A stretch of DNA of 64,000 nucleotides from Nitrosomonadales bacterium (GCA_016213335.1 JACRAQ010000115.1:1338-65337), one strand, 5' to 3'. Shown: positions 29,982 to 64,000, counted from the stretch's first letter. Notes: generated by a model not told the origin, from the letters alone. Numbers and translations: made by a program.

Positions 29982-30107
29982 ATTCCATTTCTAATTCGAA
30001 AGTGAGACAAGGCGGCGACAAGCGAGCGACGAAGATAGTACAAAGTAGTACAGCGAGGAGCGAGCGCGGAAGCCAACACCGTATCACTGATGAATTAGAA
30101 TTGGAAT
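29982..30107. repeat. 126-bp MITE-like hairpin element D
   Basis: Left arm ATTCCATTTCTAATTCGAAAGTGAGA (29982-30007) pairs with right arm TATCACTGATGAATTAGAATTGGAAT (30082-30107) at 21 of 26 positions as inverted repeats. The right end abuts the stop of the HDOD gene. A separate stem (ccgctgcagc…gctgcaacagcgg, 29949-29977) precedes the element. Confidence 0.65.
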
Positions 30108-39302: not shown

Positions 39303-39311
39303 GGTCACTCC
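39264..39311. repeat. 24-bp tandem duplication (2 copies, 23 of 24 identical) containing RBS + start codon
   Basis: Copy atatctggcattcatggtcactcc (39264-39287) is followed by atatttggcattcatggtcactcc (39288-39311). On the minus strand each copy reads GGAGTGACCATGAATGCCA(A/G)ATAT. The upstream copy also holds the TGA stop of the GGDEF gene. Confidence 0.9.
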
Positions 39312-40954
39312 GCCGGGAGCACGCGGTTTTTGCCGCTCTTCTTGGCCTGGTACATGGCCTTGTCGGCGCGACCGATCACGACTTCCGCTTCTTCATTCTC
39401 GGCGCGCAACGCCACGCCCGCGCTGAAGGTAATCAGCAGGCGCTTATTGTCGTTCAGGAAAAATTTCTTGGTAAGCTCGCGCTGCAGGCGGGTAATGGTT
39501 TCCACGGCTTCCGCCAGCCCGGTATCGGGCAGGACGATGATGAACTCCTCGCCGCCATAGCGCGCCACCGCATCGGTCGGACGCAGGGTTTCCTTGATGA
39601 CTCTGGTGAGATGCACCAGCGCCCGGTCGCCGGCCTGATGACCCAGGGTATCATTGAGCTGCTTGAAATTATCTATGTCGAGCATCACCAGGCTGACCGG
39701 AGCCTGCTGGCGGTCGGCACGCTTGATTTCGCGCTCCAGCGTTTCGTCCAGCCCGCGCCGGTTGAGCGCGCCGGTAAGCTGGTCCGCGTGCACCAGTTCG
39801 CTGGTTTGCTCCAGCTCCTGCTCCAGTTGCCGCACGCGATCTTCGGCTTGCTGCGCCTGCTTGCGGGTAACAAGCAGCTCTTCGTGGGAGCGTTGCGCGC
39901 TGTCCTGGATGACGCGCGTATCGTGCATCACTTCATCGAGTATTTTGCTCAATGCCGCAAGATTGTCTGCGCCTCTTATCCTCTGGCTGTACTCGAAAAT
40001 TTTGGTGTGGTATGCGCCGGTGCTTTCGGTCAAGCCACCCAGGTTGTCAATGAAAGTCGTCATCAGGCTCTTGAGGGTAACCTTGGCATCGTTCAGGCTT
40101 TGCTTCAGGAAACCCTGCTCGATGATGGCATTGCGCAGATTGCGCTCCGCATCGGCGATGGTGCGCTTGTCCATGGGCTGCGAGATGATTTCCTGCAAGG
40201 TGAGGATCTGGCCATGCACCCACTTCTCGTCCGTGGCCAGCTCGCCGATATTTTCCACCAGCAATCGCAACAGGCGCACCACGCCTTCCTGTATCTTCTC
40301 CTTGTCCTCACTGCGCAATTCCAGCTTGATCCAGAACTGGCGCAGTTGCTTGGACAGCCTGGCAACCTGCCCGTGGTCTCCTGCAGCACGCGCCTGTTGG
40401 GCCAAAGCCCGGATCTCATCCGCCAGTTCGGGCTGCGCGCCAAGCGAGCTTTCCAGAGCTTGCGCCAGCAGCTCGCGTAACTGGGCCGTAAGTTCAATAC
40501 TCTTGATTACGCCTTGCGGCGAGCCCGATGGCGCCGGAGCAGCCGCAGACGGCTCCAGCACCGCCGGAACCAGCTCGCTGGAGCCGGGCGCGACCGGCGC
40601 ACTGGACCAGGAATGCACCAAAGCCTGCAACTTCTCGAACAGCGCGTCCGGGTTGGCGGCAAACTTGTTCAGCACGGTCTCCAGGCCGTCCCTCTTGCGG
40701 GTAAGGGTGATGCCTTTGTGCGGGGTCTCCAGTTGCTTGAGCAGATCGCGGATCAGCCTGGACCATACCGGAGCCGGCTTTTCCTGCCCGCCCGGCTGCG
40801 CCTGCGGCGCCGCAACTCCCGGCGCCCCGCTACCCGCACCGCCGATTTCCTGGTAAACGCGCGCATAGTTGTCTGGCGTCGGGATGATTTTGCGCGCGGC
40901 CAGGGTTTTCAGGGTTTCTCGCGCAATGTCGGAGGGGTTGGTGAGTGTGGCCAT
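39305..40954 (-). CDS. diguanylate cyclase (GGDEF domain) with long helical N-terminal region
   Basis: 549 aa with the C-terminal GGDEF domain DIDNFKQLND, the I-site RPTD five residues before the active site, and GGEEF itself. Confidence 0.9.
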   Translation of the reverse strand: MATLTNPSDIARETLKTLAARKIIPTPDNYARVYQEIGGAGSGAPGVAAPQAQPGGQEKPAPVWSRLIRDLLKQLETPHKGITLTRKRDGLETVLNKFAANPDALFEKLQALVHSWSSAPVAPGSSELVPAVLEPSAAAPAPSGSPQGVIKSIELTAQLRELLAQALESSLGAQPELADEIRALAQQARAAGDHGQVARLSKQLRQFWIKLELRSEDKEKIQEGVVRLLRLLVENIGELATDEKWVHGQILTLQEIISQPMDKRTIADAERNLRNAIIEQGFLKQSLNDAKVTLKSLMTTFIDNLGGLTESTGAYHTKIFEYSQRIRGADNLAALSKILDEVMHDTRVIQDSAQRSHEELLVTRKQAQQAEDRVRQLEQELEQTSELVHADQLTGALNRRGLDETLEREIKRADRQQAPVSLVMLDIDNFKQLNDTLGHQAGDRALVHLTRVIKETLRPTDAVARYGGEEFIIVLPDTGLAEAVETITRLQRELTKKFFLNDNKRLLITFSAGVALRAENEEAEVVIGRADKAMYQAKKSGKNRVLPAE

Positions 40955-43738: not shown

Positions 43739-44963
43739 ATGCAGGAAATCTTTCTGGCTCGCCAGCCCATCCTCGATAAACGCAGCAAGCTGTTCGCGTT
43801 CGAATTGCTGTTCCGGTCAGCCAATAACACGGTATCGGGGGTAGTGGACAACACCCACGCCACCGCGCAGGTGTTGACCAGCGCGTTTGGAGATCTCGGC
43901 GTTACCAGGGTTCTCGGCCCGCACAAGGGGTTTATCAATGTGGACGCTGGATTTCTGCATAGCGATCTGATCGAATTGTTGCCCAGGCAGCAGGTGGTGA
44001 TCGAACTGCTGGAAACCATCACGATCAACGATGCGGTCATCGCGCGCTGCTACGAACTGAAAGCAAAGGGGTTCAGCCTTGCGCTGGATGATGTGGACGA
44101 ACTGGACGAGGCGGTCGCCTCCTTTGCTCAAGGTGGTTGATGTAGTCAAGCTGGACGTGATCCAGATCGCCCCGGAACGGTTGCCCGCGCTGGTGAAAGA
44201 GTTCCGGAAACACCCCGTCAAGCTGCTGGCCGAAAAGGTGGAAGACCACGCGCAGGCACGCCGCTGCACCGAAATGGGCTTCGATATGTTCCAGGGCTAT
44301 TATTTCGCGCGCCCCGAGGTGCTTTCCGGCAAGCGCGCGGACGTTTCCAAAATGGCGTTGCTGCAAATTCTGGTGCTGATGGCGGGCGGCGCAGACAACG
44401 AGAAAATCGAGGACGCGTTCAAGGAACATGCGACCCTCTCCTACAATCTGCTGCGCATCGTAAACTCGGCCGGCATGGGCTTGATGACCAAGGTCAGCTC
44501 CATCAAGCACGGCCTGATCGTGCTCGGGCGGCGGTCGTTGCAGCGCTGGGTACAATTGCTGCTCTACGCCTCCGGCAAGGAAGGTGAAGCGCCCAGCCCG
44601 CTGATGCGACTGGCCGCCACTCGCGCAAAACTGATGGAGCTGATCGTGCAACTCGAGCGCCCGAATGATCGCGACTATGCCGACCGCGCTTTCATGACGG
44701 GCATACTGTCGTTGCTCGGCGCCTTGCTGTGCGAGCCGCTACCGGAAATCCTGGCGCGCCTGAGCCTCGATGAGCAAGTTGAAGCCGCTCTGCTGGAGCG
44801 CGCGGGAAGATTGGGTAGCCTGCTGGACATTTGTGAAACAACAGAATCCGGCAACCTGCCCGCCATACAGGAAAAACTGCAAGCTCACCCCGGCCTGACC
44901 CTGAATGCGCTGAACGCGGCACAACTGGAAGCGTTGGGCTGGGCGAATAGCATCGCCGTATAA
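43739..44963 (+). pseudogene. EAL-like + HDOD c-di-GMP signalling protein (COG3434/YuxH-like), interrupted by a +1 frame change near 44095-44125
   Basis: ORF 43739-44140 (…FELLFRS…GFSLALDDVDELDEAV…) stops at 44138-44140. The next frame continues without a plausible start, with PLLKVVDVVKLDV…EKVE…GFDMFQGYYF and then an HDOD domain up to 44963. Together they make one ~408-aa protein. Confidence 0.7.
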
Positions 44964-51644: not shown

Positions 51645-52955
51645 TCAGTTTTCCTCGTCGCGGTCGTTCAGCAGGTGCGAGATGCGCGTGTTCGCCACCG
51701 CCAGGCGCTTCACCAGCATGCGCAGGAAAGCCTCGCTGAACTGGAAGCGGCACCCCGTTGACGATTGCGCCAGAACATTAGGCTTGATTTCGATCAGGAT
51801 CGCATCGTCTCTGGCCATCACGTCGGTCGTGCGCAGGAAATCCCGTTCGGAAAGATGCGCCATTTCTCCGAAGCAATCGCCCTTGTGCAGCACGCTCAGC
51901 AGCCGCCCGCGCTTGAGCACCTTGACCGCACCGCTGGCCAGGATGAAGAATTCCTGCCCTGCCTCACCCTCGCTGATGATGCGCTCGTCCTTTTGCACCT
52001 TGCGCCATTCGCTGATATGCAGCACTTCCCACAGCTCGACGTCGCTGAACTTCCTGAAGAACTCCAGCTCGCGCAAGGTATTGAATTTTTCTGTTACGAA
52101 AATTTCCGTTTGCGGCGCTACGTTGCGGCTGAAAAATGTCACCAGATCGCGGGCGAACTCATCCCAGCTCTGGTAGCGCTGCTGGAGGTTCTTGCACATC
52201 GCGCGCATCACGATGGCGTCCAGCGCCGGCGAGATTTCCGGGCGAAAGGTGCTGGCCGGCTGCGGCTCCATGTTCATGATCTGGTAAATCATGCTGTAGT
52301 TGTTGCGCGCGTCGAACGGCAACTTGCCGGTCAACAGCTTGTACATGGAAACGCCGAGCGAATAAATATCGGTCTGGTGGGTCAGCGTCTGTTCCCTGAT
52401 CTGCTCTGGCGACATGTAAGCGGGCGATCCCACGCCGCTCACCTGCGTGGTTTGCTGGCTCTCGATGACCGCCGCACCAAAATCTGAAATCTTGATATCG
52501 CTCTCGCCGTGCAACAGGATATTGGCCGGCTTGATGTCGCGGTGGATAATCCCCTGGTATTGCGCATACTCCAGCGCCTTGCAGCATTTGTAGATGATTT
52601 CCGCAACCGTGCTCAGCGGCAACAGGTGGTCCACTTCGGCGTAACGCTCGAGCGTTTCCCCCTCCACATATTCCATCACCATGTAGTTCACGTCACCATC
52701 CATCACGGCATCGAAAACTTTCACGATGTGCGGGTGCGACAGTTTGCCGGCCAGTGACGCTTCAGTCAGAAACAACTTCCGGTAGGCCTTGGTGCGGGTG
52801 CTGTCGCGCAAGGCATCGAGGTTGAACAGCTTGATGGCGACCCGCTGGTTGGCGAACGGGTCAAGTGCAAGATACACCGTGCTGGTCGCGCCGCTACCCA
52901 GTTCCCGGATGATTTCGTATTTGCCTATTTTGTCCATAAAACCGGATAGAGCCAT
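51645..52955 (-). CDS. Hanks-type Ser/Thr protein kinase fused to a C-terminal cyclic nucleotide-binding (CNB) domain
   Basis: 436 aa. Kinase motifs are the Gly loop LGSGATSTVY, VAIK, HRDIKPANILL, DFG and GSPAYMSPE. The C-terminal CNB shows EGEAGQEFFILASG.VKV and FGEMAHLS…RTTDV. Confidence 0.85.
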   Translation of the reverse strand: MALSGFMDKIGKYEIIRELGSGATSTVYLALDPFANQRVAIKLFNLDALRDSTRTKAYRKLFLTEASLAGKLSHPHIVKVFDAVMDGDVNYMVMEYVEGETLERYAEVDHLLPLSTVAEIIYKCCKALEYAQYQGIIHRDIKPANILLHGESDIKISDFGAAVIESQQTTQVSGVGSPAYMSPEQIREQTLTHQTDIYSLGVSMYKLLTGKLPFDARNNYSMIYQIMNMEPQPASTFRPEISPALDAIVMRAMCKNLQQRYQSWDEFARDLVTFFSRNVAPQTEIFVTEKFNTLRELEFFRKFSDVELWEVLHISEWRKVQKDERIISEGEAGQEFFILASGAVKVLKRGRLLSVLHKGDCFGEMAHLSERDFLRTTDVMARDDAILIEIKPNVLAQSSTGCRFQFSEAFLRMLVKRLAVANTRISHLLNDRDEEN

Positions 52956-53042: not shown

Positions 53043-54458
53043 ATGAAAAATCTGACGCTTGCTTTGTTGCTGGCGCTGGCGCTGCCGTGCCGCGCGGAAG
53101 GGCTGCCCGATCTGGGAGATGTTTCTCAAGCCGCAGTCTCACCGCAACAGGAGCGCCAGATCGGCGAACAAAGCATGTTCGAGATCCGCGCTGACAAAAG
53201 CTATCTTGACGATGCCGAAATCGGCGACTACCTCAACCAGCTCGGCTACCAGCTGGTCGCAAACAGCAGTGAGCCAGGCCAGGAGTTTGAATTCTTCGCC
53301 ATCAACGACAATGCCATCAACGCCTTCGCTCTGCCCGGCGGCTTCATCGGGGTAAACACCGGCCTGATCCTCGCCACGCAAAGCGAATCCGAGCTCGCCT
53401 CGGTATTGGGCCACGAAATCGCCCACGTCACGCAGCATCATCTGGCGCGCATGGTGGCCGGGCAAAAAATAGATACGCTCGCCGCGATGGCCACCATAGC
53501 GGCAGCCATCCTGGCCGCACGCAGCAACCCGGATGCCGCACAGGCCGCGATAGCTGGCGTGCAGGCGGGCGCCATCCAGCGACAGTTGAACTTCACCCGC
53601 ACGCACGAACAGGAAGCTGATCGCCTCGGCCTCGACACACTGCAAAAATCCGGCTTTGACCCGCACGCCATGCCCGTCTTCCTGGAACGTCTGCAAAAAG
53701 CCACTCGCTTGCTGGAAGGCAATGCGCCCACCTATCTGCGCACCCACCCGATAACCGGCGAACGCGTCGCCGATATTGCCGGTCGCCTGCAGCGCACCCC
53801 CTACCGCCTGGTAGCCGACAGCCTCAGCTTTCATCTGGTGCGCGCCAAACTCCAGGCCGCCCAGAAGATACCTCAGGAAGCGCTCGCCTATTTCACCGGG
53901 GCGCTGGGGTCGCGGAAACACGGCAACCAGACCGCGCAACGCTACGGGCTGGTGCTGGCCCTGCTGCGCAATAAACAGCCCGCGCGCGCCGCGCAGGAAT
54001 TCGCCGCGCTGCAAAAACAGGCAACAAAAAATCCGATGATTGCGACGCTGGCGGGGCAGCTCAAGCGAAGGGACAAAAACGACAAGAGCGCCATCGGGTT
54101 CTACCGCACTGCCACCCAGAATTTTCCGCAGCACCGCGCGCTGGCTTACGACTACGCGGAAATGCTGTTGCAAGCCCGCAAACACGAAGACGCGCTCAAG
54201 CTGCTCAATGAACAAATCATCAGCCACCCCAGCGACCCGCGCCTGTATGAGCTACAGGCGCGCGCCTACGCGGCGACAGGCAAGCGGCAGGAAGAGCACC
54301 GCGCGCTCGCCTACAACTACGCCCTGCGCGGCAAGCTATACGGCGCGATCGAACAGCTGGAACTGGCAAAACAGGCGGGCTCGAACTATTACCAGCTCTC
54401 CATAATCGAGAGCGAACTGCGCGAACTGCGCGAAATAGCTGACGCGCGCAATAAATAG
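53043..54458 (+). CDS. M48 family zinc metalloprotease with C-terminal TPR domain (BepA/YfgC-like)
   Basis: 471 aa with a signal peptide, the zinc motif HEIAHVTQHH with downstream E (EQEAD), and C-terminal TPR-like repeats. Confidence 0.85.
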   Translation: MKNLTLALLLALALPCRAEGLPDLGDVSQAAVSPQQERQIGEQSMFEIRADKSYLDDAEIGDYLNQLGYQLVANSSEPGQEFEFFAINDNAINAFALPGGFIGVNTGLILATQSESELASVLGHEIAHVTQHHLARMVAGQKIDTLAAMATIAAAILAARSNPDAAQAAIAGVQAGAIQRQLNFTRTHEQEADRLGLDTLQKSGFDPHAMPVFLERLQKATRLLEGNAPTYLRTHPITGERVADIAGRLQRTPYRLVADSLSFHLVRAKLQAAQKIPQEALAYFTGALGSRKHGNQTAQRYGLVLALLRNKQPARAAQEFAALQKQATKNPMIATLAGQLKRRDKNDKSAIGFYRTATQNFPQHRALAYDYAEMLLQARKHEDALKLLNEQIISHPSDPRLYELQARAYAATGKRQEEHRALAYNYALRGKLYGAIEQLELAKQAGSNYYQLSIIESELRELREIADARNK

Positions 54459-54465
54459 GAAATTG

Positions 54466-56075
54466 CTATTTTTTCCCAAGCGCATCCAGCTTATCGCACG
54501 CGATACGGCGTCCCGCCTTGCAGACTGCCGTGAGGTCGGCGCGCGCAGAATCTCCATCTCCCATCATCATGTATGCCACGCCCCTAGAATAACGCGCCTG
54601 GTCATATCCGCTATCCAGTTCCAACGCGCTGCCAAAACTTGAAACGGCATCTGCATACTTACTTTCCTGAATATAAGCTGCGCCCAGTCCTTGGTAGAGA
54701 TATTTCTGCCCCGAACGAGGCGACAGTGAAAGTGCCAAGCGATAATCCTGTATTGCCTGCTGGGAGCGTTTAACATTCAGGAAAGATATTGCCCGATTTT
54801 CATAAATACGCCATACCCCTGGCAGGTCATGCTTTTGCTCAACCAATTTGGCCGCATCATGCCACAGCAACACAGGATCAGAAAAAGTGGTCAGGCGGTT
54901 TATGCTGCCCATGGCAAAGGCAAGGATCATAAGCAACATGACAGGCATTGCAATGCCAGCCTTGACTCTGCTTAGCCACAGCGGCAAAACGATAAAGATT
55001 CCCGTCATCCATAGATAACTGCGGTACAGCACAAACGATTCCTGAATCCTGACTGTAGAAAATTCGGTAAGAACAGAAGCCACGGAAACAACATGGCAAA
55101 GCCCGCCACACCCATCGCCCCGCGCCGGAGCAGCAGCCAGACCGCTGCCATGCCATAGCCGGCAAATGCCAATGCCGCCAACCCGGAGATCGAAAAAAAA
55201 CCGGTAGCGAAAGGCTCGCGCATATCCACCGACATCCAGGCCGGATTTGGCAATAACCATAACCCGGCATATTTGAAAAACAAGGCGCACTGCGTCAGGA
55301 TACTGAGCGGATAGGCGTGCTTGATTTCAGCTTGTTCCAGCATTCCCCGCGCATTGAACTCATACACACTTCCGAGAATGCCCAATTTCTGGAACACTAC
55401 GAACAATGCGATGAACAGGCAAGCCAGATATATCCATCGCAGCCGCCTGAACAGGTTTGCCGATAAATCGGACAACAATACCGTCAGAGCCAGCAAAACA
55501 GCTGGCAGCATGATAGCGTGTTCTTTTGACAGCACAGCCAACCCATAGAATAAAACGCTCGCCCACAACCAGCCATCACGATTACTGGCCAGCCCGCGCA
55601 TATAGGCCAGCAGCGCAAGCAAGCTGAACAGAGTAGCCATGACTATGGTGCGCTGGATCAGATAGCCCGCGCCATATACCGCCACTGGGTGCAACACAAA
55701 CAGGCTCGCCGAACAGAAGGCAAGCAATTGGGTCTCTTTTTCGCTACGCCCCAAAGCAGGTATCTGTTGATACAACCGCCGTAACAGAAAAAACAACGTA
55801 ACCCCAACAACGGCATGCAACAAAAGCGCCTCCAGCCGCAGCCAAGGCAGATTTTCGTCCGCCGCCTCCACCGTCCATGCCATGGTTGCATAAGGTAACC
55901 AGCGTATCTGCAACGGGGAAAATGCGCCTAACTTATTGACGTCATCCGATCCGGGAATAAACAGATTCGTGTCGTCAAACACCAACGGATTGGTTAAGAA
56001 CGGGCCGTACAACAGCACAGCCATAATGATGATCATTACGGCGTAGCCCAAGGCGCGCAACGGCATTTGTCCCAT
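54466..56075 (-). pseudogene. TMTC/PMT_2-like multi-pass membrane protein with C-terminal TPR repeats, split by a 1-nt frame change near 55059-55062
   Basis: Frame A (to stop 55005) has LVFDDTNLF near its N-terminus and about 9 TM helices. Frame B (54466-55290) continues with …STVRIQESFVLYRSYLWMTGIFIV…, further TM helices and then TPR repeats. Adding one T to the minus-strand T4 run joins them as …PWLLFLPNFSTVRIQES…. The start (56075 or 56066) is uncertain. Confidence 0.55.
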
Positions 56076-56094
56076 CAGATTTGCGTTTGCAATG

Positions 56095-56128
56095 AAAAAA
56101 CCCGGCAAGAAATCTTGCCGGGTTTTTG
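56095..56128 (-). terminator. Rho-independent (bidirectional) terminator after the pilin gene
   Basis: aaaaaa-CCCGGCAAGA-aat-TCTTGCCGGG-ttttt. A perfect 10-bp stem is flanked by an A6 tract and a T5 tract. Begins 17 nt downstream of the pilin stop. Confidence 0.85.
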
Positions 56129-56144
56129 TTACAACGCGCTTAGC

Positions 56145-56582
56145 TTAGTTCTTCACGTAGGCGTTAGCCACGCACGCGCCACTGTATTGCCAATCAAGGC
56201 GATTAGCCGACGTATTGGGGGTTGGAGTCATAGTACAAGTGTCGCCCGCTGCAATACCCTTAACTGCATTGGGTGTCGCAGTGATAATGCCGCCAGCAGC
56301 CACAGCGACGGCATTCAATGCACCAGTCGTGTTGCCAGTAATCGCAGGAGGAACACCGCTGGTGCCGGCTGTGCAACCAGCAGCGAGACCAGCATCACCC
56401 GCCTCGCCCCAACAATCTTCCACACCCAGCTTGAACGGGGTCATCGCTGAGGTCACTTCGGTGTAGGCCGCCTTCCGGATATAATTCTGGTAAGCGGGTA
56501 TTGCCACTGCCGCTAGAATACCGATGATCGCGACCACGATCATCAGTTCGATGAGGGTAAAGCCTTTTTGGGTTTGTTTCAT
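56145..56582 (-). CDS. pilA: type IVa major pilin
   Basis: 145 aa with the class III leader MKQTQKG|[28 protein letters not shown]-terminal Cys pairs, and RBS AAGGAGA upstream. Confidence 0.93.
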
Positions 56583-56637
56583 GTTGAATCTCCTTAATCA
56601 GGTTGGTTACGACACACGGGGTGTGCAGTTGCTATAC

Positions 56638-56653
56638 TGCAGTATCCGTGCCA
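56638..56653 (-). promoter_or_regulatory. sigma-54 (-24/-12) promoter for the pilin gene
   Basis: The minus strand reads TGGCACGGATACTGCA, versus the consensus TGGCACG-N4-TTGCW. The GG and GC dinucleotides have the correct spacing. Lies about 55 nt upstream of the pilin ATG. Confidence 0.65.
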
Positions 56654-56737
56654 CGGCACTCAGCCAGGCTAACATATTGTATAAACAATAGTTATTGCAA
56701 CTCCACCACCCAGCCGCCGCATTTACCTGCCTAATCC

Positions 56738-56753
56738 TGTCAGCCATGTGACA
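56738..56753. promoter_or_regulatory. candidate enhancer (bEBP/PilR-type) binding palindrome upstream of the sigma-54 promoter
   Basis: TGTCA-GCCATG-TGACA is a perfect inverted repeat about 94 bp upstream of the -24 element. An AT-rich stretch (attgtataaacaatagttattg) lies between the two. Confidence 0.4.
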
Positions 56754-56767
56754 ATTTTCGTCAGCCC

Positions 56768-58360
56768 TTACGGCACATAGCCGGGAATCCGGCTTTCATC
56801 CACCGTATCAATCTGCTCGGGATCCAGGAATTGGCGCGCATAGGCCAGATACACTTTCTCGCGCACGAAGATGTCGAACAGGTCCGGGTCTATATGCCCA
56901 CTGAGTTTGAAATTGCCGAGTATAACGAGCGATTCGGTGAGGGTTTTGCCTTTTTTGTACGGCCTGTCCTTGGCGGTGAGCGCTTCGAAAATGTCGGCGA
57001 TACCCATCATGCGCGCCTGTAGCGACATTTGCTCGCGTTTCAGCCCGCGCGGGTAGCCCTTGCCGTCCATGCGTTCGTGGTGGCCACCGGCGAATTCCGG
57101 CACATTCTTGAGGTGCTTGGGCCAAGGCAGCGATTCCAGCATCTTGATGGTGACGTCAATGTGGTGGTTGATGATCTGGCGCTCGGCCACGGTAAGCGTG
57201 CCAAACGGGATGGTAAGGTTTTCCACTTCGTCGCCGCTGAGGAAATTGCTCTGCTCACCCGCCTCGTTGCACCACCGGTAAGAGGCGATGCTGCGCACCC
57301 GCGCCTGGTCCGCCGCGCTCATCTTTTCCGAACCGATGTTGCAGTGCCGCAAGAATTCGCGGTCATCGTTCAATTGGCGAATGCGTGCTCCAAACTCATC
57401 AGCGCTCATTTCTCCCTTGAGCTTTACGATCTCGGCATCGCGCTTGAGCACCTCGAAGCGGGTATCCAGCAGATGGATGCGGTCCAGCAAAGTGTGCAGT
57501 TTGGTGGATTTGTCCACCACATGCACCGGGGTAGTAACCTTGCCGCAATCATGCAGCAGCGCCGCAATTTTCAGCTCATGCTTCTCCCTGCCGCTCATCG
57601 CCAAACCATGCAGCGGCGATGCCGGTCCGGCACGGCAGGCCGCCTCGGCCAGCATCATGGTCAGGATCGGCACACGCTCGCAATGGCCGCCGGTATAGGG
57701 CGACTTGTCGTCAATTGCAGTGTTGATGAGGCTGATGAAGGATTCGAACAGATCTTCCAGCTGCTGGATCAGGCGGCGGTTGGTGAGCGCAATGGCGGCC
57801 TGCGAGGCGAGCGATTCCAGCAGGTGCTCATCCTCGCTGGAAAACGCGACAATCTCCCCGGTCTTCCTGTCCAGGGCATTGATAAGCTGCAACACGCCGA
57901 TGATCTCATTCTCGTGATTCTTCATCGGCACTGCCAGAAATGAGGTGGAGCGGTATCCGGTTTTCTTGTCGAAATTCTTGGTGCCGGAAAAATCGAAACC
58001 TTCGGCGGTGTAGGCGTCGGCGATGTTCACCGTCTTGTCGTGCAGCGCCACGTAGGCCACCACCATGGAGTTGTTGGGTTTGCCGTCCTTGTCGGTCAGG
58101 TGGATGGGGTAATAAGGTATATATGCGCCGGATGTGCCGCCCATCTTGATACCGAGCGAATCGGTGCGCATGATCTCGAACCGGAGCACCAGCTCATTTG
58201 GTTCCACCAGATACAGCGTTCCCGCATCGGCGTTGGTGATGCGTTTTGCGGCAACCAGTATGGTTTCCAGCAGGCGGTTGATGTCGCGTTCGCTTGACAG
58301 CGCGATGCCGATGGCGTTCAACTCGTCCAGCCGCTGCAGCAGGTCGTCGTGGTGTGTCAT
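56768..58360 (-). CDS. GAF domain + HD-GYP domain protein (putative c-di-GMP phosphodiesterase)
   Basis: 530 aa. The N-terminal GAF shows NADAGTLYLV…VNIADAY…DKKTGYRSTSFLAVPM…GVLQLIN. The HD-GYP shows GGHCERV, LHDCGKV and HHERMDGKGYPRGL. Confidence 0.88.
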   Translation of the reverse strand: MTHHDDLLQRLDELNAIGIALSSERDINRLLETILVAAKRITNADAGTLYLVEPNELVLRFEIMRTDSLGIKMGGTSGAYIPYYPIHLTDKDGKPNNSMVVAYVALHDKTVNIADAYTAEGFDFSGTKNFDKKTGYRSTSFLAVPMKNHENEIIGVLQLINALDRKTGEIVAFSSEDEHLLESLASQAAIALTNRRLIQQLEDLFESFISLINTAIDDKSPYTGGHCERVPILTMMLAEAACRAGPASPLHGLAMSGREKHELKIAALLHDCGKVTTPVHVVDKSTKLHTLLDRIHLLDTRFEVLKRDAEIVKLKGEMSADEFGARIRQLNDDREFLRHCNIGSEKMSAADQARVRSIASYRWCNEAGEQSNFLSGDEVENLTIPFGTLTVAERQIINHHIDVTIKMLESLPWPKHLKNVPEFAGGHHERMDGKGYPRGLKREQMSLQARMMGIADIFEALTAKDRPYKKGKTLTESLVILGNFKLSGHIDPDLFDIFVREKVYLAYARQFLDPEQIDTVDESRIPGYVP

Positions 58361-58385
58361 CGCTTGCCCCGCATCGAATAAAGTG

Positions 58386-60791
58386 CTACTTGATACAAAC
58401 CGCGCGCACCTGGTGAATGTCGGTAATGCCCGCCAGCACTTTCTCGATGCCGTCCTGTTTCAGCGTGCGCATCCCCTCTTCCAGCGCGATCGCCAGCAAT
58501 TCTGCGACGCGCGCGTGCTCCTGGATGGCTTTTTTGATGGGGTCGGTGCCGATCAGCAGCTCGTGCAACCCGACCCGGCCGCGGTAGCCGGTGCCGGAGC
58601 ACTTGTCACAGCCGACTTTTTCATACAGGGTGATATGCCCCTTGTCATCCGCGAATAGCTTGATCCAGTCGGCATACAGCGTCTTGAATGCGGCATTCGG
58701 ATCTTTCTTCCAGGTTTCGGTATTTTTCAGTTCTTCCGCATATTCGGACAGCAAGGACTTGATCTCTTCCTGGGTCGCGATACGCGGTTTCTTGCAATCC
58801 TTGCACAGGCGCTTGGCCAAACGCTGCGCCAGGATGCCCAGCAGCGCATCGGCGAAATTGAACGGATCCATGCCCATATCCAGCAGGCGGATGATGGATT
58901 CAGGCGCGCTGTTGGTGTGCAGGGTAGCGAACACCAGGTGGCCGGTGAGCGAGGCTTCGATGCCGGTTGCAACGGTTTCCTTGTCGCGCATTTCGCCGAC
59001 CATAATCACGTCCGGATCGGCACGCAGGAAGGCGCGCATGATGGTGGCAAAGTCCAGCCCGGCCTTTTTGTTGATCTGCACCTGGCGCAGGCCCTTCTGG
59101 GTGATTTCCACCGGGTCTTCCGCCGTCCATATCTTGGTATCCGGCGTGTTGATATGTTTCAGGATGGAGTGCAGTGTGGTGGTTTTACCGGAGCCGGTCG
59201 GGCCGCACACGAAGAACAGCCCGTAAGGCTTGCTGACCGTCTTCTTGACCAGCTCCAGGTTGCGTGCCGAAAAACCCATGTTGTCGAGCGGGATCGGCTC
59301 GCCCGAAGCCAGGATACGCATCACGACGTCTTCCACGCCACCTTGTGAAGGGATGGTCGCCACGCGCAGCTCGATATCCAGGGGGCCGTACTTCTTGAAC
59401 TTGATCTTGCCATCCTGCGGTTTGCGCTTCTCGGAAATATCGAGGTCGCACATGATCTTAAGGCGCGTGACCAGCGCGTTCCGGTAAGTTGCAGGGATCT
59501 CGATGTAACTCAACAACGAGCCATCCTTGCGCAGGCGTATCCCGGTCTTGCCTTTCCCCGGCAAAGGCTCGATGTGGATGTCGGATGCCCCCATCCGGTA
59601 GGCATCCACGATGATCTTGTTGACCAGCTTGACCAGCTCGTTGTCCGCTGCGGCGCTGACATCTTCCTGGCTGACAGCGCTGGATTCTTCATCCTCTCCC
59701 CCCAGCGAGGTAAGCAGGTCGTCCACGGAACCGCTATCTGCCTCGAAGCCTCCGGTGATTTCACCCGTTCCGCCGCCGCTGTAGAACAGGTCGAGCGTGG
59801 CCTTGAATTCGCGTTGCGGGCAGACTTTATAAATCAGGCGGTTCTTGGGAAAAATGTTGTTGACAACGCGCGAGGCCATGATCCGCTCCGGATCGGTGGT
59901 GAGGATCACCAGCCCTTCCTGGTTCTCCTCTATCGGCACCCAGTGGCTGCTCTCGACATATTCGCGCTTCAGGTTCCGGAGCAAGTCTGCGGGCTTGATG
60001 CGGTCGGTCTTGTGCGGCTCGTAGGGCACGCCGAAGTAGGTGGAAAGCGCCTTGCCCAGCGCGGGCAGTGCGACCTGAAACTCGTCTATCAGCACATCCT
60101 CGATGTCGGCGCCCTTGCGTCGTGCGGTACGCGTGGCCAGCTCGAATTCTGCGGCGGAGATGACCGCATCCGCTACCAGGTTATCGTATTTCGTTTTGAC
60201 AACGGAAGGCTGCTGGCGCTGGCGCAACGCCACCGCCAGCGTCTGCGCCAGCTCGTGCACGCCTTCCTCCACGACCTGCGGGAAAGGCTGGTCGGCCTTG
60301 TTGTTGATGACCTGGATGACGCCGATCAGCTCGCCGCCAGCCGCCTCGACGATGGGCGCCACCAGCATCTGCTTGGTGCGGTAGCCGGTGCGCCGGTCCA
60401 CGTCCTGCAAGAAACGCAACTGCGGGCTGTAGGATGCGAGCTCCTTCTCGTCGTACACGTCCTTGAGGTTGAGCGTTTTCTTGTTCAGCGCGGCAAAACC
60501 GGCGATGCTTTGTTCAGCGATGGGCAGCTTGAGATCCTTGAACGAGTTCAGGCCGGTCTTGACCTTGGAAACCAGCGAAACCTTGTCCTCTCCCACCACG
60601 TAAACAGTGAGGCGATCGGCATTGAACAGGCTGCAGATATCCTTGCTGACATCCAGCATGATCTCGTCAATGTTGCTGGTGGCATGGATCTTGTTGATGA
60701 CGTGGTTGAGGTTTTTGGTAAACTCCAGCCGTATTTCCATGTCGCCTGCGCTCGTCCTGCGCTCGATGCGGGGTACTGTCGCGTTATCCAT
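58386..60791 (-). CDS. GspE/PilB-family secretion ATPase with N-terminal GAF domain
   Basis: 801 aa. Domain order: GAF (…NADRLTVYVV…LNLKDVY…DRRTGYRTKQMLVAPI…GVIQVINN), a T2SSE_N-like domain and an acidic linker, then the ATPase core. The core has Walker A GPTGSGKTTT, Walker B DPDVIMVGEMRD, His box GHLVFATLHTN and Cys motifs CKDC…CDKC. Confidence 0.88.
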   Translation of the reverse strand: MDNATVPRIERRTSAGDMEIRLEFTKNLNHVINKIHATSNIDEIMLDVSKDICSLFNADRLTVYVVGEDKVSLVSKVKTGLNSFKDLKLPIAEQSIAGFAALNKKTLNLKDVYDEKELASYSPQLRFLQDVDRRTGYRTKQMLVAPIVEAAGGELIGVIQVINNKADQPFPQVVEEGVHELAQTLAVALRQRQQPSVVKTKYDNLVADAVISAAEFELATRTARRKGADIEDVLIDEFQVALPALGKALSTYFGVPYEPHKTDRIKPADLLRNLKREYVESSHWVPIEENQEGLVILTTDPERIMASRVVNNIFPKNRLIYKVCPQREFKATLDLFYSGGGTGEITGGFEADSGSVDDLLTSLGGEDEESSAVSQEDVSAAADNELVKLVNKIIVDAYRMGASDIHIEPLPGKGKTGIRLRKDGSLLSYIEIPATYRNALVTRLKIMCDLDISEKRKPQDGKIKFKKYGPLDIELRVATIPSQGGVEDVVMRILASGEPIPLDNMGFSARNLELVKKTVSKPYGLFFVCGPTGSGKTTTLHSILKHINTPDTKIWTAEDPVEITQKGLRQVQINKKAGLDFATIMRAFLRADPDVIMVGEMRDKETVATGIEASLTGHLVFATLHTNSAPESIIRLLDMGMDPFNFADALLGILAQRLAKRLCKDCKKPRIATQEEIKSLLSEYAEELKNTETWKKDPNAAFKTLYADWIKLFADDKGHITLYEKVGCDKCSGTGYRGRVGLHELLIGTDPIKKAIQEHARVAELLAIALEEGMRTLKQDGIEKVLAGITDIHQVRAVCIK

Positions 60792-60842
60792 CCACTGCTC
60801 CTTGTGATGCCTGTACCGGAATCAATTACCGGCCCCGGCGTA

Positions 60843-61940
60843 TTATTCCTGCTGATATCTGGGCGCCTTCCACAGGCCGCCTTCCAGCACGTAAACATCG
60901 TATCCCGCCTGCGCCAGAATGAATGCGGCAGCCGAACTGCGCCGCCCGCTCTGGCAATAGGTGATGTAGGTGCTGTTTCTATCGAGCGCCCCGATCGCGC
61001 TCCGGACATCGTTCAGCGGGATATTGATCGCGCCCGGTATTTTGTCGAAGCGGTATTCCGACGGGTGGCGCGCATCCACCCATATCGCGCCCTGTGCCAC
61101 TTTTTGCCTGGCATCCTCGTAGCTCAGGCGGTGCAGCAACGGCTCCTGCATCAGTTCGAAAAAATCCTGCCGCTTCAGGCGCAACAGCACGCCGCCGGAC
61201 TTCATGGTCACCGTAGCGTTGCGCTTGGCGCCTGAAACCAGCGCCTCTTCACCGAACACGTCGCCCGCCTTGAGGTCCGCCAGCAGCATGTTGATTCCGC
61301 CGACCTGGCGGGTAACCTGCGCCCGGCCGCTTTCTATCATGTAATAGTAATCGCCCTCGTCGCCCTCGCGGATAATGGCGTCGTTGGCCCATACCGCCAC
61401 CGCTTCGATGCGCTCGAGCAACTGCCCGATATTGGCCGGCGGCAAGTGGGCAAACGGGCCGCTCTTGATGTATTCTGCGCTGAATATGCCGGAACTCAGC
61501 CAGCGCGAGGGTCCGGTGGACAATTCCGGCGCGGCGCCGCTCTCCGTTAGGGGTTTCGCGCCGTCGTGCGGCGAAAACTGGTCCCACGTCGCAATCATGT
61601 CCAGCACATCGTCATCCACGCGCAGCAACTGGATGTCGCTCAGCGCCGTGGCGCCAACGATTTCGGGCTGGCGCTTGCCCAACGGGTGCTTGGCCCATTC
61701 TGAATTGGCACGCACCAGCACCCGGTTGCCATCCTGGTATTCCAGCTCCAGCTCGCCCTGGAGCAGGTACACGGACTGCCCATGCAGACCGCGCTTCCCG
61801 AATGGATTCTGCCCCTTGGGAACCGCTTCCAGATGACTATAGTCGAGCAGCTCACGCAAGCGGGCAGGACCGAACGACGAAATCGGCTTCAGCGCTGCCA
61901 GCATTCTGATGTCCAACATACCGCTCATCGTGTCTTCCAT
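60843..61940 (-). CDS. tandem cyclic nucleotide-binding-like domains + C-terminal rhodanese domain
   Basis: 365 aa. The first CNB-like fold is degenerate. The second is canonical (REGDEGDYYYMIESG…GDVFGEEALVSGAKRNATV). The rhodanese domain has the active-site loop YCQSGRRS. Confidence 0.8.
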   Translation of the reverse strand: MEDTMSGMLDIRMLAALKPISSFGPARLRELLDYSHLEAVPKGQNPFGKRGLHGQSVYLLQGELELEYQDGNRVLVRANSEWAKHPLGKRQPEIVGATALSDIQLLRVDDDVLDMIATWDQFSPHDGAKPLTESGAAPELSTGPSRWLSSGIFSAEYIKSGPFAHLPPANIGQLLERIEAVAVWANDAIIREGDEGDYYYMIESGRAQVTRQVGGINMLLADLKAGDVFGEEALVSGAKRNATVTMKSGGVLLRLKRQDFFELMQEPLLHRLSYEDARQKVAQGAIWVDARHPSEYRFDKIPGAINIPLNDVRSAIGALDRNSTYITYCQSGRRSSAAAFILAQAGYDVYVLEGGLWKAPRYQQE

Positions 61941-61976
61941 CCCGGAACGCTAAAACTCGAACACTTGGCCGTTTTG

Positions 61977-62720
61977 CTAGATCCGGGGGGGTAATCGGCG
62001 CACGCACTCCCCGATCTCCTGATTTGTCAGCTCGACCTCACCGGGTTTCAGGTGGGTAATGTAAATTTCCGGATCAAGCTTGAGCTTCAGCAGCTCCTCG
62101 GCCAGCATGCTGGGGCAAAAATGCTTGGAGCGCACCGCCAGATCCCTTTCCGCATTGGAAAAGGCGGTTTCGATGATAAGGTAGCGCAGGTTGGCGATGC
62201 GGTTGACCTCCTCCCACAGCGCATCGTTGGTCGTGGTATCGCCGCTGAATACCAGGCTGGCTGCCCCGCTGTCAACGCGAAACCCCACTGCGGGCACCAC
62301 GTGGTTGGCCGGCAACACGGTAATGCTTGCCCCCCGTTTTTTCAGTTCCACGGTCTGCCCCACCCGTATCGCGCTGTAGCGCATGAAGGGCCGTTGCGCG
62401 TCGGGAATGCGGGTGAAATCCGGCCAGATTCCCCAGTTAAAAATATGCTGCCTGAGAAGCGCCAATGTTTCCCCGGTGGCGTGGATGGTCAGCGGTTTGT
62501 CGCGCATAAAGCCAGCGCTGTCCACCAGCAGCGGGACACAAGCGATGTGATCGAGATGAGAATGCGTGACGAACACGTGGTCTATCATGCTCAGCTCGGT
62601 CAGGCTGAGCTCGCCCACGCCGGTGCCGGCATCAATCAGCACATCATTGTCCAGCAACATGGACGTGGTGCGCGAATTTCCACCAATGCCACCGCTGCAG
62701 CCGAGAATTCTGAGTTTCAT
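61977..62720 (-). CDS. class II 3',5'-cyclic-nucleotide phosphodiesterase (metallo-beta-lactamase fold)
   Basis: 247 aa with MKLRILGCSGG…, the signature THSHLDHI, and later FSGDT and the ITHLKP region. Confidence 0.78.
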   Translation of the reverse strand: MKLRILGCSGGIGGNSRTTSMLLDNDVLIDAGTGVGELSLTELSMIDHVFVTHSHLDHIACVPLLVDSAGFMRDKPLTIHATGETLALLRQHIFNWGIWPDFTRIPDAQRPFMRYSAIRVGQTVELKKRGASITVLPANHVVPAVGFRVDSGAASLVFSGDTTTNDALWEEVNRIANLRYLIIETAFSNAERDLAVRSKHFCPSMLAEELLKLKLDPEIYITHLKPGEVELTNQEIGECVRRLPPRI

Positions 62721-62755
62721 CGCCAGCTATCCGAACCGGTTATCGGGGCTTCCGG

Positions 62756-64000
62756 CTATTTAGTTTGAAAAACAAATACGCCATCCCAGTCCGCTCCCGG
62801 CGGGTTGCCCCGGAAATATGCGACACGTTCGGCATAGGCTTGGTACAGCACGCTTTCGGGCGCCATGCGCTGCAAATTATACAGCTGCAATTCCGCCTGC
62901 TCCCAATCCTGCTTGCGGTACAACTTCAGCACCTGATGAAAAAGCTTGAGTTCGTCCAGCGCGGCCTTGTCCACCTGGCCCGCCAAACCGAGCGGCTCAT
63001 AAATCGCTACGGGCTTGTCCTTGCCTTTCACCCGCACCAGGTCAAGCTCGCGGTAGATGAAATCCGGCACAGCGTTTTTGGTGTTCTCGCCCACGACGAC
63101 ACCCGCCCCATATTGCTTGGTAATGCCTTCCAGGCGCGAGGCCAGATTGACCGCATCTCCCATGACAGTATAGGCCACGCGCACTTCCGATCCCATGTTG
63201 CCCACGCTCACGCGACCGGTGTTGATGCCGACGCCGATATGGATTTCCGGCCAGCCGCGCTCCTTGAAATGCGGCAAAAGCTCCCGCAACTTCTGCTGCA
63301 TTTCAATGCCCGCCAGGATCGCGTGTTTCGCGTGCTCCGGATCCGGCAGCGGGGCGCCCCAGAATGCCATGATGCAGTCGCCCATGTATTTGTCTATGGT
63401 GCCGCGGTGCTTGTAGATCACGCGCGACAGGGGGGTGAGGAACTCGTTCATCAGCAAGGTGAGCTCCTTGGCGTCCAGCTTTTCTGAAATGCTGGTAAAG
63501 CCGCGCACGTCCGAGAACAGGATGGTCATCTCGCGGCTGTCGCCTTCCATCGAAACCTGCTCCGGATTCTTGCTCATCTCGTCAACCAGCTCGGACGGCA
63601 CGTATTGCCCGAACAGGCCGGTAATCTGCCGCTTGGTGCGCGCTTCGACAAAATAGCCGTAAGACATATCCAGCGCGAACAACCCCAGTATCATCAGCAC
63701 ACCGCCCGCCAGCGGCAATGCCAGCCCGGCAAAATGCCAGATTGCCAGGTTGCCCGCCAGCGCGGTCGCCAGTGCAAGCAAGGCGAGCAGCGTCGCCTTC
63801 ACCGGCGACAGCAATGGCAGGATCAGGCTCAGCACCACGCCGGTGATCAGCAACAACATGACTTCTGCACCCAGCAAGTAGGGAGGCTTGTGCTTGAGGT
63901 CCTGGTTGAGGATGCCATCTATCATGTTGGCGTGGATTTCCACCCCCGGATACACCGCCGCGACCGGGGTGGAGCGCATGTCCATCAACCCCGGTGCAGA
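62756..64000 (-). CDS. CHASE2-sensor class III adenylate/guanylate cyclase (N-terminus outside window)
   Basis: The frame is open to the window edge. It contains a CHASE2 tail (YPGVEIHANMIDGIL), 3 TM helices, then a cyclase domain with ILFSDVRGFTSISE, DKYMGDCIMAFWGAP and AYTVMGDAVNLASRLEG. Confidence 0.85.
   Translation of the reverse strand, partial: SAPGLMDMRSTPVAAVYPGVEIHANMIDGILNQDLKHKPPYLLGAEVMLLLITGVVLSLILPLLSPVKATLLALLALATALAGNLAIWHFAGLALPLAGGVLMILGLFALDMSYGYFVEARTKRQITGLFGQYVPSELVDEMSKNPEQVSMEGDSREMTILFSDVRGFTSISEKLDAKELTLLMNEFLTPLSRVIYKHRGTIDKYMGDCIMAFWGAPLPDPEHAKHAILAGIEMQQKLRELLPHFKERGWPEIHIGVGINTGRVSVGNMGSEVRVAYTVMGDAVNLASRLEGITKQYGAGVVVGENTKNAVPDFIYRELDLVRVKGKDKPVAIYEPLGLAGQVDKAALDELKLFHQVLKLYRKQDWEQAELQLYNLQRMAPESVLYQAYAERVAYFRGNPPGADWDGVFVFQTK

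Follow-up and report, generated by a model that had tools for sequence, protein, structure and literature searches.

A GAF-fused PilB-type ATPase within a conserved cyclic-nucleotide signalling block: a candidate messenger-gated pilus motor

Which machine, if any, does a secretion-type motor ATPase serve when it carries a sensor domain of its own and stands apart from the genes of any such machine? The question is raised by a 64,000-nucleotide stretch of DNA from a Nitrosomonadales bacterium (GCA_016213335.1 JACRAQ010000115.1:1338-65337; this whole stretch is called the window below), in which an initial annotation, made from the sequence alone, described the product of positions 58386-60791 as an orphan 801-residue ATPase of the GspE/PilB type with an N-terminal GAF domain. 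We find that the protein (here the GAF-ATPase) is a distinct, widespread and expressed paralogue that is kept intact by selection. Our preferred reading of its function, held tentatively and a little short of an even chance, is that it would serve a type IVa pilus machine as an auxiliary extension motor, gated by cyclic AMP (cAMP) and probably modulated through FHA/phosphothreonine.

The open reading frame (ORF) has exactly the boundaries first given for it and lies on the minus strand; it starts with ATG, with an AGGAG ribosome-binding site 8 nt 5' of it. A scan with hidden Markov models (HMMs) recovers three Pfam domains, GAF, MshEN (T2SSE_N) and T2SSE, all above their gathering scores; the T2SSE match spans residues 382-795 (376 bits, cut-off 24.9). 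The catalytic boxes of a type II/IV secretion ATPase, initially described as intact, were all located by regular expression: Walker A (GPTGSGKT) at 530, the Asp box (AEDPVE) at 557, Walker B (VIMVGEMRD) at 595 and the His box (TGHL) at 616, with the tetracysteine zinc motif formed by CKDC at 663 and CDKC at 728. The catalytic residues are near-invariant across 77 Betaproteobacterial orthologues, and the four zinc-motif cysteines are kept in 77-78 of 78 sequences. Superposition of the ATPase core on PilF (5oiu, 5it5) and PilB (5tsh) gives Foldseek template modelling scores, TM(target), of 0.86-0.90. The full-length AlphaFold2 (AF2) model has a mean predicted local distance difference test score (pLDDT) of 80.5 and a predicted template modelling score (pTM) of 0.50; because of this pTM, the relative orientation of the domains in the model is unreliable. 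The acidic Gly/Ser-rich linker noted at the outset runs from residue 338 to 384; it is predicted to be disordered (pLDDT below 50) and is poorly conserved (36% mean identity). Taken together, the best explanation is that the gene product would be a catalytically competent PilB-type hexameric ATPase. Between CKDC and CDKC lies an insertion of about 40-45 residues that the initial annotation overlooked. It does not align with PilF or PilB, is confined to the window-type subgroup of the family and is modelled as a helix with pLDDT above 90.

The scores of the equivalog models in NCBIfam place the protein outside both well-known groups, with 474.4 bits for PilB (TIGR02538, cut-off 675.65) and 436.1 bits for GspE (TIGR02533, cut-off 630.25); neither cut-off is reached. 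For the ATPase core, a neighbour-joining tree (369 columns, 100 bootstraps) was calculated with references of the PilB type (PilB of A. baumannii and M. xanthus, PilF of N. gonorrhoeae and T. thermophilus, and a PilB-like protein of Ralstonia) and of the GspE type (GspE/XcpR of E. coli, P. aeruginosa and Ralstonia). The family splits from all eight references in 100/100 bootstraps, so that the GAF-fused members do form a clade of their own against PilB, PilF and GspE, the only groups whose separation the tree tests. Over the core, the window protein shares 41-49% identity with the references, as against 58-94% with intact family members. Nine positions (K462, E474, H541, W555, T564, Q565, L568, R569, and M585) are invariant or nearly so in the family and hold a residue found in no reference. 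The first of these falls in the PQDGR motif: all eight references have its Arg, and the family has Lys instead. The GAF-ATPase is best explained as a separate paralogue of the housekeeping PilB and GspE that would have diverged anciently.

The family is large. When 1.84 billion representative proteins were searched with residues 1-380, 248 clusters matched at E below 1e-30. Full-length members share 30-50% identity over the N-terminal part and 49-70% over the ATPase. A profile search with a diverse family alignment against a 5.8-billion-protein database returned only near-duplicates from Gallionellaceae. In a genome scan with the Giesbergeria orthologue as query, at least 597 genome stretches matched; the best 80 of these loci all show full-length coverage including the GAF and come from Burkholderiales (Rhodoferax, Polaromonas, Ramlibacter, Curvibacter, Noviherbaspirillum), Zoogloea (Rhodocyclales), Parachitinimonas and Pelomicrobium. 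One distant member is from Nitrospirota. The closest relatives of the window protein are 85-92% identical and belong to Gallionellaceae (Sideroxydans, Sideroxyarcus, Gallionella, Ferrigenium), where they are annotated as 'GspE/PulE family protein', 'GAF domain-containing protein' or 'putative phytochrome sensor protein'. Several variant forms were seen among the family members P0169, P0121, P0128, P0234, P0242, P0262, P0203, and P0205. In P0169, the GAF and MshEN-like N-terminus precedes a C-terminal region that by eye is TIR-like in place of the ATPase, and in P0121 about six MshEN-like repeats come after it and an ATPase is absent. Elsewhere it stands before ATPase domains with a degenerate Walker A, which are probable pseudo-ATPases. 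Low-GC members carry 2-4 tandem GAFs.

The identity of the N-terminal domain as a GAF is upheld by HMM, PDB sequence search and predicted fold. The Pfam match covers residues 41-189 (38.8 bits). The top PDB sequence match in phmmer is CyaB2 (1ykd, E 6.5e-25, with both CyaB2 GAFs), and further matches are PmGH, PDE10A GAF-B, PDE2A, PDE5 and PDE6; all significant ones except PmGH bind cyclic nucleoside monophosphates (cNMP). The GAF modelled by itself (pLDDT 81.8) matches many GAF structures with a Foldseek probability of 1.00, and the best fold matches are PmGH, PDE10A GAF-B, CyaB2, PDE6C, PDE2A, PDE5A, and Leptospira Lcd1 with cAMP. The long terminal helices resemble the helices that form the dimer in the GAFs of phosphodiesterases and CyaB2; as a speculation, GAF dimers might bridge subunits of the hexamer. 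The residues that contact cyclic GMP (cGMP) in PDE2A GAF-B, a list reportedly due to Martinez et al. in 2002, we take to be S424, D439, I458/A459, Y481, D485, T488, and T492, and their spacing fits the aligned PDE2A sequence exactly. In the window protein, T62 corresponds to S424, I96/A97 to I458/A459, D132 to D485, T135 to T488, and T139 to T492. The ribose-phosphate positions of the pocket are conserved, and both positions that discriminate the base in PDE2A are changed, D439 to T79 and Y481 to L128. Among the 77 orthologues, R60, T62, T79, S95, A97, G98, F127, D132, S/T135, G136, Y137, R138, T139, N163, and F170 are near-invariant. The predicted GAF is nearest to the GAFs that bind cAMP or cGMP, and cAMP is its probable ligand. 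Regulation of the ATPase through this domain, supposed from the start, would be in keeping with the near-invariant pocket residues and with the cAMP enzymes clustered around the gene, both of which strengthen the proposal.

The second N-terminal domain, initially called T2SSE_N-like, is matched by MshEN of Pfam at residues 253-341 (40.9 bits, cut-off 23.1). The c-di-GMP motif of MshEN comprises 24 residues, RLGxx(L/V/I)(L/V/I)xxG(L/V/I)(L/V/I)xxxxLxxxLxxQ (Wang et al. 2016, PMC5013675). Neither the strict nor a relaxed form of this motif matches the window protein or 32 family members, in line with the earlier failure to spot it, and M. xanthus PilB, the positive control, matches the relaxed form. 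KYD is located at the site where the motif expects RLG.

Is the ATPase then an orphan? With regard to machine parts it is, as the initial annotation claimed. A Pfam scan of about 60 ORFs spanning the whole window finds no T2SSF/PilC, GspF, PilMNOPQ, secretin or peptidase A24, and tblastn with PilC, GspF, XcpS, PilD, and GspD agrees in finding no match in the window; PilC, GspF, PilD, and secretin likewise give no tblastn match near any of 88 family loci. Functionally the description does not hold, since a conserved signalling block and a pilin surround the ATPase: a cyclase, a cNMP phosphodiesterase, a cNMP-binding protein and a GAF-HD-GYP protein flank it (Table 1). These signalling genes had been overlooked, and the pilin had correctly been placed two genes downstream. 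The reading frame of the cyclase is open to position 64000, so the gene runs off the end of the window; as the end cuts the cyclase, genes for a kinase, a PP2C phosphatase and an FHA protein would sit beyond it, as predicted by synteny with Sideroxydans lithotrophicus ES-1 only. The metallo-β-lactamase (MBL)-fold phosphodiesterase and the cNMP-binding/rhodanese protein follow. The latter has an intact rhodanese active-site loop (CQSGRRS); its ES-1 orthologue is annotated as a Crp/Fnr regulator, and no DNA-binding domain was detected. Downstream of the ATPase, the HD and HHE..DG.GYP motifs are readable in the translation of the GAF-HD-GYP gene, the GAF of which also carries the TGYR(T/S) motif seen in the GAF of the ATPase. 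The HD-GYP domain is split by about 90 residues (HD part 225-290, GYP part 377-494), and a comparable insertion has been described for GAF-linked HD-GYPs (PMC12943098).

Table 1. Coordinates of the ATPase, its domains and its neighbours in the window, and occurrence of the neighbours at family loci
Feature	Residues	Position	Strand	Basis or remark	Place relative to ATPase	Family loci
GAF-MshEN-like-T2SSE ATPase	801 aa	58386..60791	(-)	ORF, Pfam and NCBIfam, motifs, AF2 model		
GAF domain with long N- and C-terminal helices	about 20-193	60213..60734	(-)	Pfam, phmmer, AF2, Foldseek		
MshEN-like (N1/T2SSE_N) domain	about 200-337	59781..60194	(-)	Pfam; c-di-GMP motif absent		
Acidic Gly/Ser-rich linker	338-384	59640..59780	(-)	Sequence, AF2		
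ATPase core (N2 and C-terminal domain, CTD)	385-801	58389..59639	(-)	T2SSE, Foldseek, signature residues		
Helical insertion between CKDC and CDKC	676-720	58632..58766	(-)	PilF/PilB alignment, AF2		
CHASE2 kinase					Upstream	33/55
PP2C					Upstream	51/58
FHA protein					Upstream	56/61
CHASE2 class III adenylate cyclase (IIIb-type, Lys/Thr), 3' part, predicted		62756..64000	(-)	Pfam Guanylate_cyc and CHASE2 fragment	Upstream	39/67
MBL-fold class-II/Apyc1-like cyclic-nucleotide phosphodiesterase, predicted		61977..62720	(-)	Pfam Lactamase_B_2 and PDEase_II; Apyc1 match in orthologues	Upstream	52/76
cNMP-binding and rhodanese protein		60843..61940	(-)	Pfam cNMP_binding, Rhodanese	51 nt upstream	10/76
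GAF-HD-GYP, predicted c-di-GMP phosphodiesterase		56768..58360	(-)	Pfam GAF, HD and HD_5	25 nt (directly) downstream	11/60
Putative sigma-54-type -24/-12 element, TGGCAC-N5-CTGCA		56638..56653	(-)	Read from sequence; upstream of pilin		
Type IVa major pilin, GFTLIE prepilin		56145..56582	(-)	Pfam N_methyl, NCBIfam pilin models	Downstream	
GC-rich hairpin terminator		56108-56140		Directly after pilin stop codon		
PMT_2/GT-C-like and TPR gene		54466..56108	(-)	Pfam; frameshift near 55070; downstream of pilin		

The whole block is seen in the complete genome of ES-1, where the genes lie on one strand in the order CHASE2 Ser/Thr kinase, PP2C, FHA, CHASE2 cyclase, MBL/PDEase_II, cNMP-binding/rhodanese (Slit_0535, in the same position as in the window), GAF-ATPase (Slit_0536), GAF-HD-GYP, pilin and TPR protein, followed by flhDC and motAB. 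The order in the window equals that of ES-1 from the cyclase onward. By eye, the ES-1 FHA protein, Slit_0532 (L001 5059-5799), has one FHA domain at its N-terminus and what may be a degenerate second one in its C-terminal half; between the two runs a linker rich in Thr and Ser that resembles a substrate site for a kinase. The frequencies in Table 1 were obtained by tblastn of the window and ES-1 neighbours against the 80 best loci, corrected for contig ends so that the denominators count the loci extending far enough. In the loci counted, the neighbours lie on the strand of the ATPase and in ES-1 order, and the most constant of them is the FHA protein. Among the clustered cyclases, the substrate-specifying positions hold Lys in 39/43 and Thr in 38/43, a pair which we take to be the class IIIb adenylate-cyclase pattern. 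The block of kinase/PP2C/FHA, cyclase/phosphodiesterase, ATPase and pilin is conserved across Betaproteobacterial orders.

A prepilin-type gene lies within 4 kb downstream of the ATPase on the same strand in 38/68 loci; its start is at most 300 nt from the ATPase in 24 of these 38, and the median distance is 189 nt. The pilin is never upstream of the ATPase and comes after the HD-GYP gene where this is present. In the window, the pilin looks like a separate transcription unit because it has a sigma-54-type element and a terminator of its own, an arrangement typical of pilA genes controlled by PilSR/RpoN. The linkage of pilin and ATPase appears to be positional, not transcriptional. A consensus scan for promoters and terminators performed no better than on shuffled sequence, and no credible riboswitch near the pilin emerged when 54000-64000 was scanned with Rfam. 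Beyond the pilin, a tblastn search with ES-1 Slit_0539 (544 aa) changes reading frame at residue 345 and runs over two overlapping window ORFs, so that the PMT_2/TPR gene is either a pseudogene or carries an assembly error; its product is possibly a pilin-modifying enzyme.

ES-1 also provides data on expression and on paralogues. Slit_0536 is abundantly expressed: it is represented in the ES-1 proteome by 51 peptides (62% coverage), and its intensity resembles that of Slit_2608; the cluster proteins Slit_0531-0539 were all detected, with the pilin Slit_0538 by far the most abundant (PMC12016527). Slit_2608 is a 63.5-kDa type II secretion system (T2SS)-E protein that adjoins the F-domain protein Slit_2607, and Slit_0498 (GspE) sits between GspF and GspD (PMC12016527). 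From its size and neighbour, we infer that Slit_2608 forms the canonical PilB/PilC pair with Slit_2607. PilMNOPQ, minor pilins, an MSH cluster, PilT and PilU are also found in ES-1 (Emerson et al., PMC3770913), and Ramlibacter is reported with 'three PilB paralogs' (PMC3164672).

As an auxiliary pilus motor gated by cAMP, the protein would operate in the following manner. The N-terminus of the ATPase would have lost its c-di-GMP-binding logic and gained a GAF of the cyclic-mononucleotide type. The CHASE2 adenylate cyclase and the MBL phosphodiesterase would set the local level of cAMP, which the GAF of the ATPase would read; in the window lineage, the cNMP-binding/rhodanese protein and the GAF-HD-GYP c-di-GMP phosphodiesterase may read it too. 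The CHASE2 Ser/Thr kinase, PP2C and FHA would add a phosphothreonine-dependent layer. Once activated, the ATPase would dock on a type IVa platform (PilC/PilM and the rest) encoded elsewhere and drive polymerisation of the major pilin encoded downstream. The role of FHA, the activation by cAMP and the pilus machine as target are what we infer. A more elaborate version is possible, and we hold it with greater doubt: a second extension motor for the type IVa pilus, in which cAMP bound to the GAF and licensing by FHA/phosphothreonine would let the two CHASE2 envelope sensors switch assembly on after translation, in parallel to and independently of the housekeeping PilB, while the adjacent GAF-HD-GYP with its cAMP-type GAF would lower c-di-GMP at the same time.

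Several observations weigh against a cAMP-gated pilus motor. In 15/61 loci, the kinase, PP2C, FHA and ATPase occur without a cyclase or phosphodiesterase; as these loci keep FHA, the main input may come from FHA and phosphothreonine, and local synthesis of the GAF ligand may not be required. PmGH, the best structural match of the GAF, is a protein without a known ligand. Distant members (Nitrospirota and others) stand alone, with neither pilin nor signalling neighbours, the exceptions being one beside two PilZ genes and another directly after an MBL phosphodiesterase. The family includes members with a degenerate Walker A and the N-terminal module on a non-ATPase C-terminus, and in the intact members the change from PQDGR to PQDGK could alter catalysis. 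With its putative sigma-54-type promoter, the pilin would not be co-transcribed with the ATPase, and their adjacency could be historical. A separate PilB is shown for ES-1 only and noted for Ramlibacter (PMC3164672).

The chief alternative is an ATPase with a signalling role only, which would drive no filament and would act as a switch or scaffold controlled by cNMP and phosphothreonine, the pilin adjacency being a relic of an ancestral pilA-pilB arrangement; such a protein might control the HD-GYP enzyme, and thus c-di-GMP, or pilin expression, or might remodel another complex. The 88 loci, none of which has genes for a platform protein, secretin or peptidase close by, the dense signalling genes in the neighbourhood and the distant members that are solitary or beside PilZ genes all fit this role. 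So do the variants in which the GAF and MshEN-like N-terminus is joined to a TIR-like domain or occurs without an ATPase, and the degenerate Walker A of several lineages; because of these lineages and of the ATPase-free forms, ATP-independent roles are suggested to have evolved in the family. The window subgroup, however, keeps its catalytic residues and zinc motif near-invariant in the 77 orthologues, which argues for a working motor. The linkage to a pilin is retained across several orders at the short median spacing given above, and the abundance of the ES-1 protein is similar to that of the PilB-like Slit_2608. We consider a role confined to signalling unlikely on balance, if far from negligible. 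A comparable reserve applies to the ligand. GAF domains bind ligands of many kinds, and here the domain might sense another one (a metabolite, redox state or haem) or only dimerise, with the cAMP enzymes acting through the cNMP-binding proteins only. The lack of a known ligand for PmGH, the loci without a local cyclase or phosphodiesterase and the residues T79 and L128 at the base-discriminating positions of PDE2A are consistent with this; yet the remaining significant PDB matches are all GAFs that bind cAMP or cGMP, the ribose-phosphate contact positions are conserved and near-invariant, and most loci have both a cyclase and a phosphodiesterase within the cluster, so that we judge a different ligand to be unlikely, though a serious contender.

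That the motor belongs to another machine encoded elsewhere, such as an MSHA-type pilus, a T2SS or a competence pilus, appears improbable. ES-1 and ES-2 do have MSH clusters and a T2SS as well, the PilB and GspE models of NCBIfam score similarly (474 and 436 bits), and the tree puts the family outside both reference groups; against this, the conserved neighbour is a major pilin of the type IVa kind, extremely abundant as the ES-1 orthologue, and a separate GspE for the T2SS is encoded between GspF and GspD. It is highly improbable that the protein is the housekeeping PilB of the organism, even though the window encodes no other T2SSE ATPase and a major pilin gene lies close by. Its score lies below the PilB equivalog cut-off and it falls in a separate clade rather than inside PilB orthologues; pilC or pilD is adjacent in none of the loci; ES-1 encodes the separate 63.5-kDa T2SS-E by its F-domain protein, a PilB/PilC-like pair; and Ramlibacter is reported to have three PilB paralogues. 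The equivalog cut-offs, the tree and the ES-1 paralogues lead us to reject the housekeeping assignment. We likewise reject a Pycsar-like anti-phage module of cyclase, phosphodiesterase and cNMP-binding protein with the ATPase as effector, which would be most surprising here. The cyclase matches the PADLOC PycC model with 108 bits, the cNMP-binding domain matches Pycsar effector models weakly and the MBL enzyme falls in the Anti-Pycsar Apyc1 family of Pfam, but such matches would be expected from class III cyclases, cNMP-binding domains and MBL phosphodiesterases in general. A TIR or transmembrane effector is not present, and the Lys/Thr specificity pair points to ATP as the probable substrate. 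The block is syntenic and vertically conserved, 85-92% identical within Gallionellaceae, and lies by housekeeping and flagellar genes, unlike a defence island.

With MshE (V. cholerae), PA14_29490 (P. aeruginosa), T. thermophilus PilF and M. xanthus PilB, the GAF-ATPase shares the GspE/PilB hexameric ATPase with an MshEN fold and the same core fold, and a parallel may exist in that the N-terminal extension of MshE-type ATPases is a receptor for a nucleotide second messenger. Unlike these, it is without the 24-residue c-di-GMP motif family-wide, has a cNMP-type GAF in front and has no adjacent pilC/mshG; it is set apart by its clade, separate from PilB, PilF and GspE, and by signature substitutions. 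The catalytic boxes, tetracysteine, N1-N2-CTD layout and nearby major pilin are those of canonical PilB (TIGR02538), whereas the absence of a pilCD operon, the extra GAF, the CxxC insertion, the PQDGK motif and the coexistence with the PilB/PilC-like pair of ES-1 are not. In the GAF-HD-GYP protein Tlr0485 of Thermosynechococcus, activity depends on binding of cAMP to the GAF (bioRxiv 10.1101/2021.11.05.467447). As in Tlr0485 and PmGH, a cNMP-type GAF precedes the output domain, and a GAF-HD-GYP is the immediate neighbour here; the output is a secretion/pilus ATPase in place of a phosphodiesterase, and the GAF ligand is predicted. The GAFs of CyaB1/CyaB2 and PDE2/5/6/10 have the same TGYRT and IAG pocket elements and long dimerisation helices, and differ in forming a tandem pair instead of a single GAF, in the residues at T79/L128 and in their output domains.

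An analogy may also be drawn with PpkA/PppA/Fha1 of the H1 type VI secretion system of P. aeruginosa, where a sensor Ser/Thr kinase, PP2C and FHA are encoded beside an envelope machine driven by an ATPase, which they presumably control after translation; here the machine is of another class, the kinase has a CHASE2 sensor and a cAMP module is coupled to it. The CRP-family proteins Vfr of P. aeruginosa and Sycrp1 of Synechocystis similarly tie cAMP to the function of type IV pili, which would be a further analogy; they act on transcription, whereas in the GAF-ATPase the receptor domain is fused to the motor.

Other genes of the window include further signalling genes. A Ser/Thr kinase with a C-terminal cNMP-binding domain (51645-52955, minus strand), 3.2 kb past the pilin, is a potential cAMP receptor. 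EAL matches are found in two overlapping ORFs on the plus strand (43739-44140 and 44079-44963, the second with HDOD), and this EAL-HDOD gene at 43739-44963 may be frameshifted or degenerate. A GGDEF gene (39305-40954) and an HDOD gene (30107-31141) lie on the minus strand. The remaining genes are housekeeping (frr, cdsA, dxr, rseP, bamA, skp, lpxDAB, fabZ, topA, his genes, tatC) and signalling genes.

The open-access literature searched holds no description of a GAF-PilB/GspE fusion or of the gene cluster, reviews of MshEN and HD-GYP do not mention a GAF-ATPase fusion, and the architecture is visible in databases under generic names only. To our knowledge, direct control of pilus or secretion motors by a messenger occurs through c-di-GMP on MshEN or through adaptor proteins, and control of type IV pili by cAMP only through transcription factors. 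What would be new is a PilB-type ATPase gated by a second messenger with a different sensor and a different messenger. If true, it would be the first cyclic-mononucleotide-gated ATPase of the secretion superfamily; the fusion of a cNMP-type GAF to the motor would give a much-studied nanomachine a new input logic and would offer a concrete case of several extension ATPases on one machine. For type IV pilus specialists, this is a directly testable hypothesis on a protein whose function is so far a prediction. The family is common among Betaproteobacteria of environmental importance, namely the iron-oxidising Gallionellaceae, Rhodoferax, Polaromonas, Ramlibacter and Zoogloea, for which surface attachment and positioning in redox gradients matter, and in them the GAF-ATPase block hints at a direct switch for pilus assembly.

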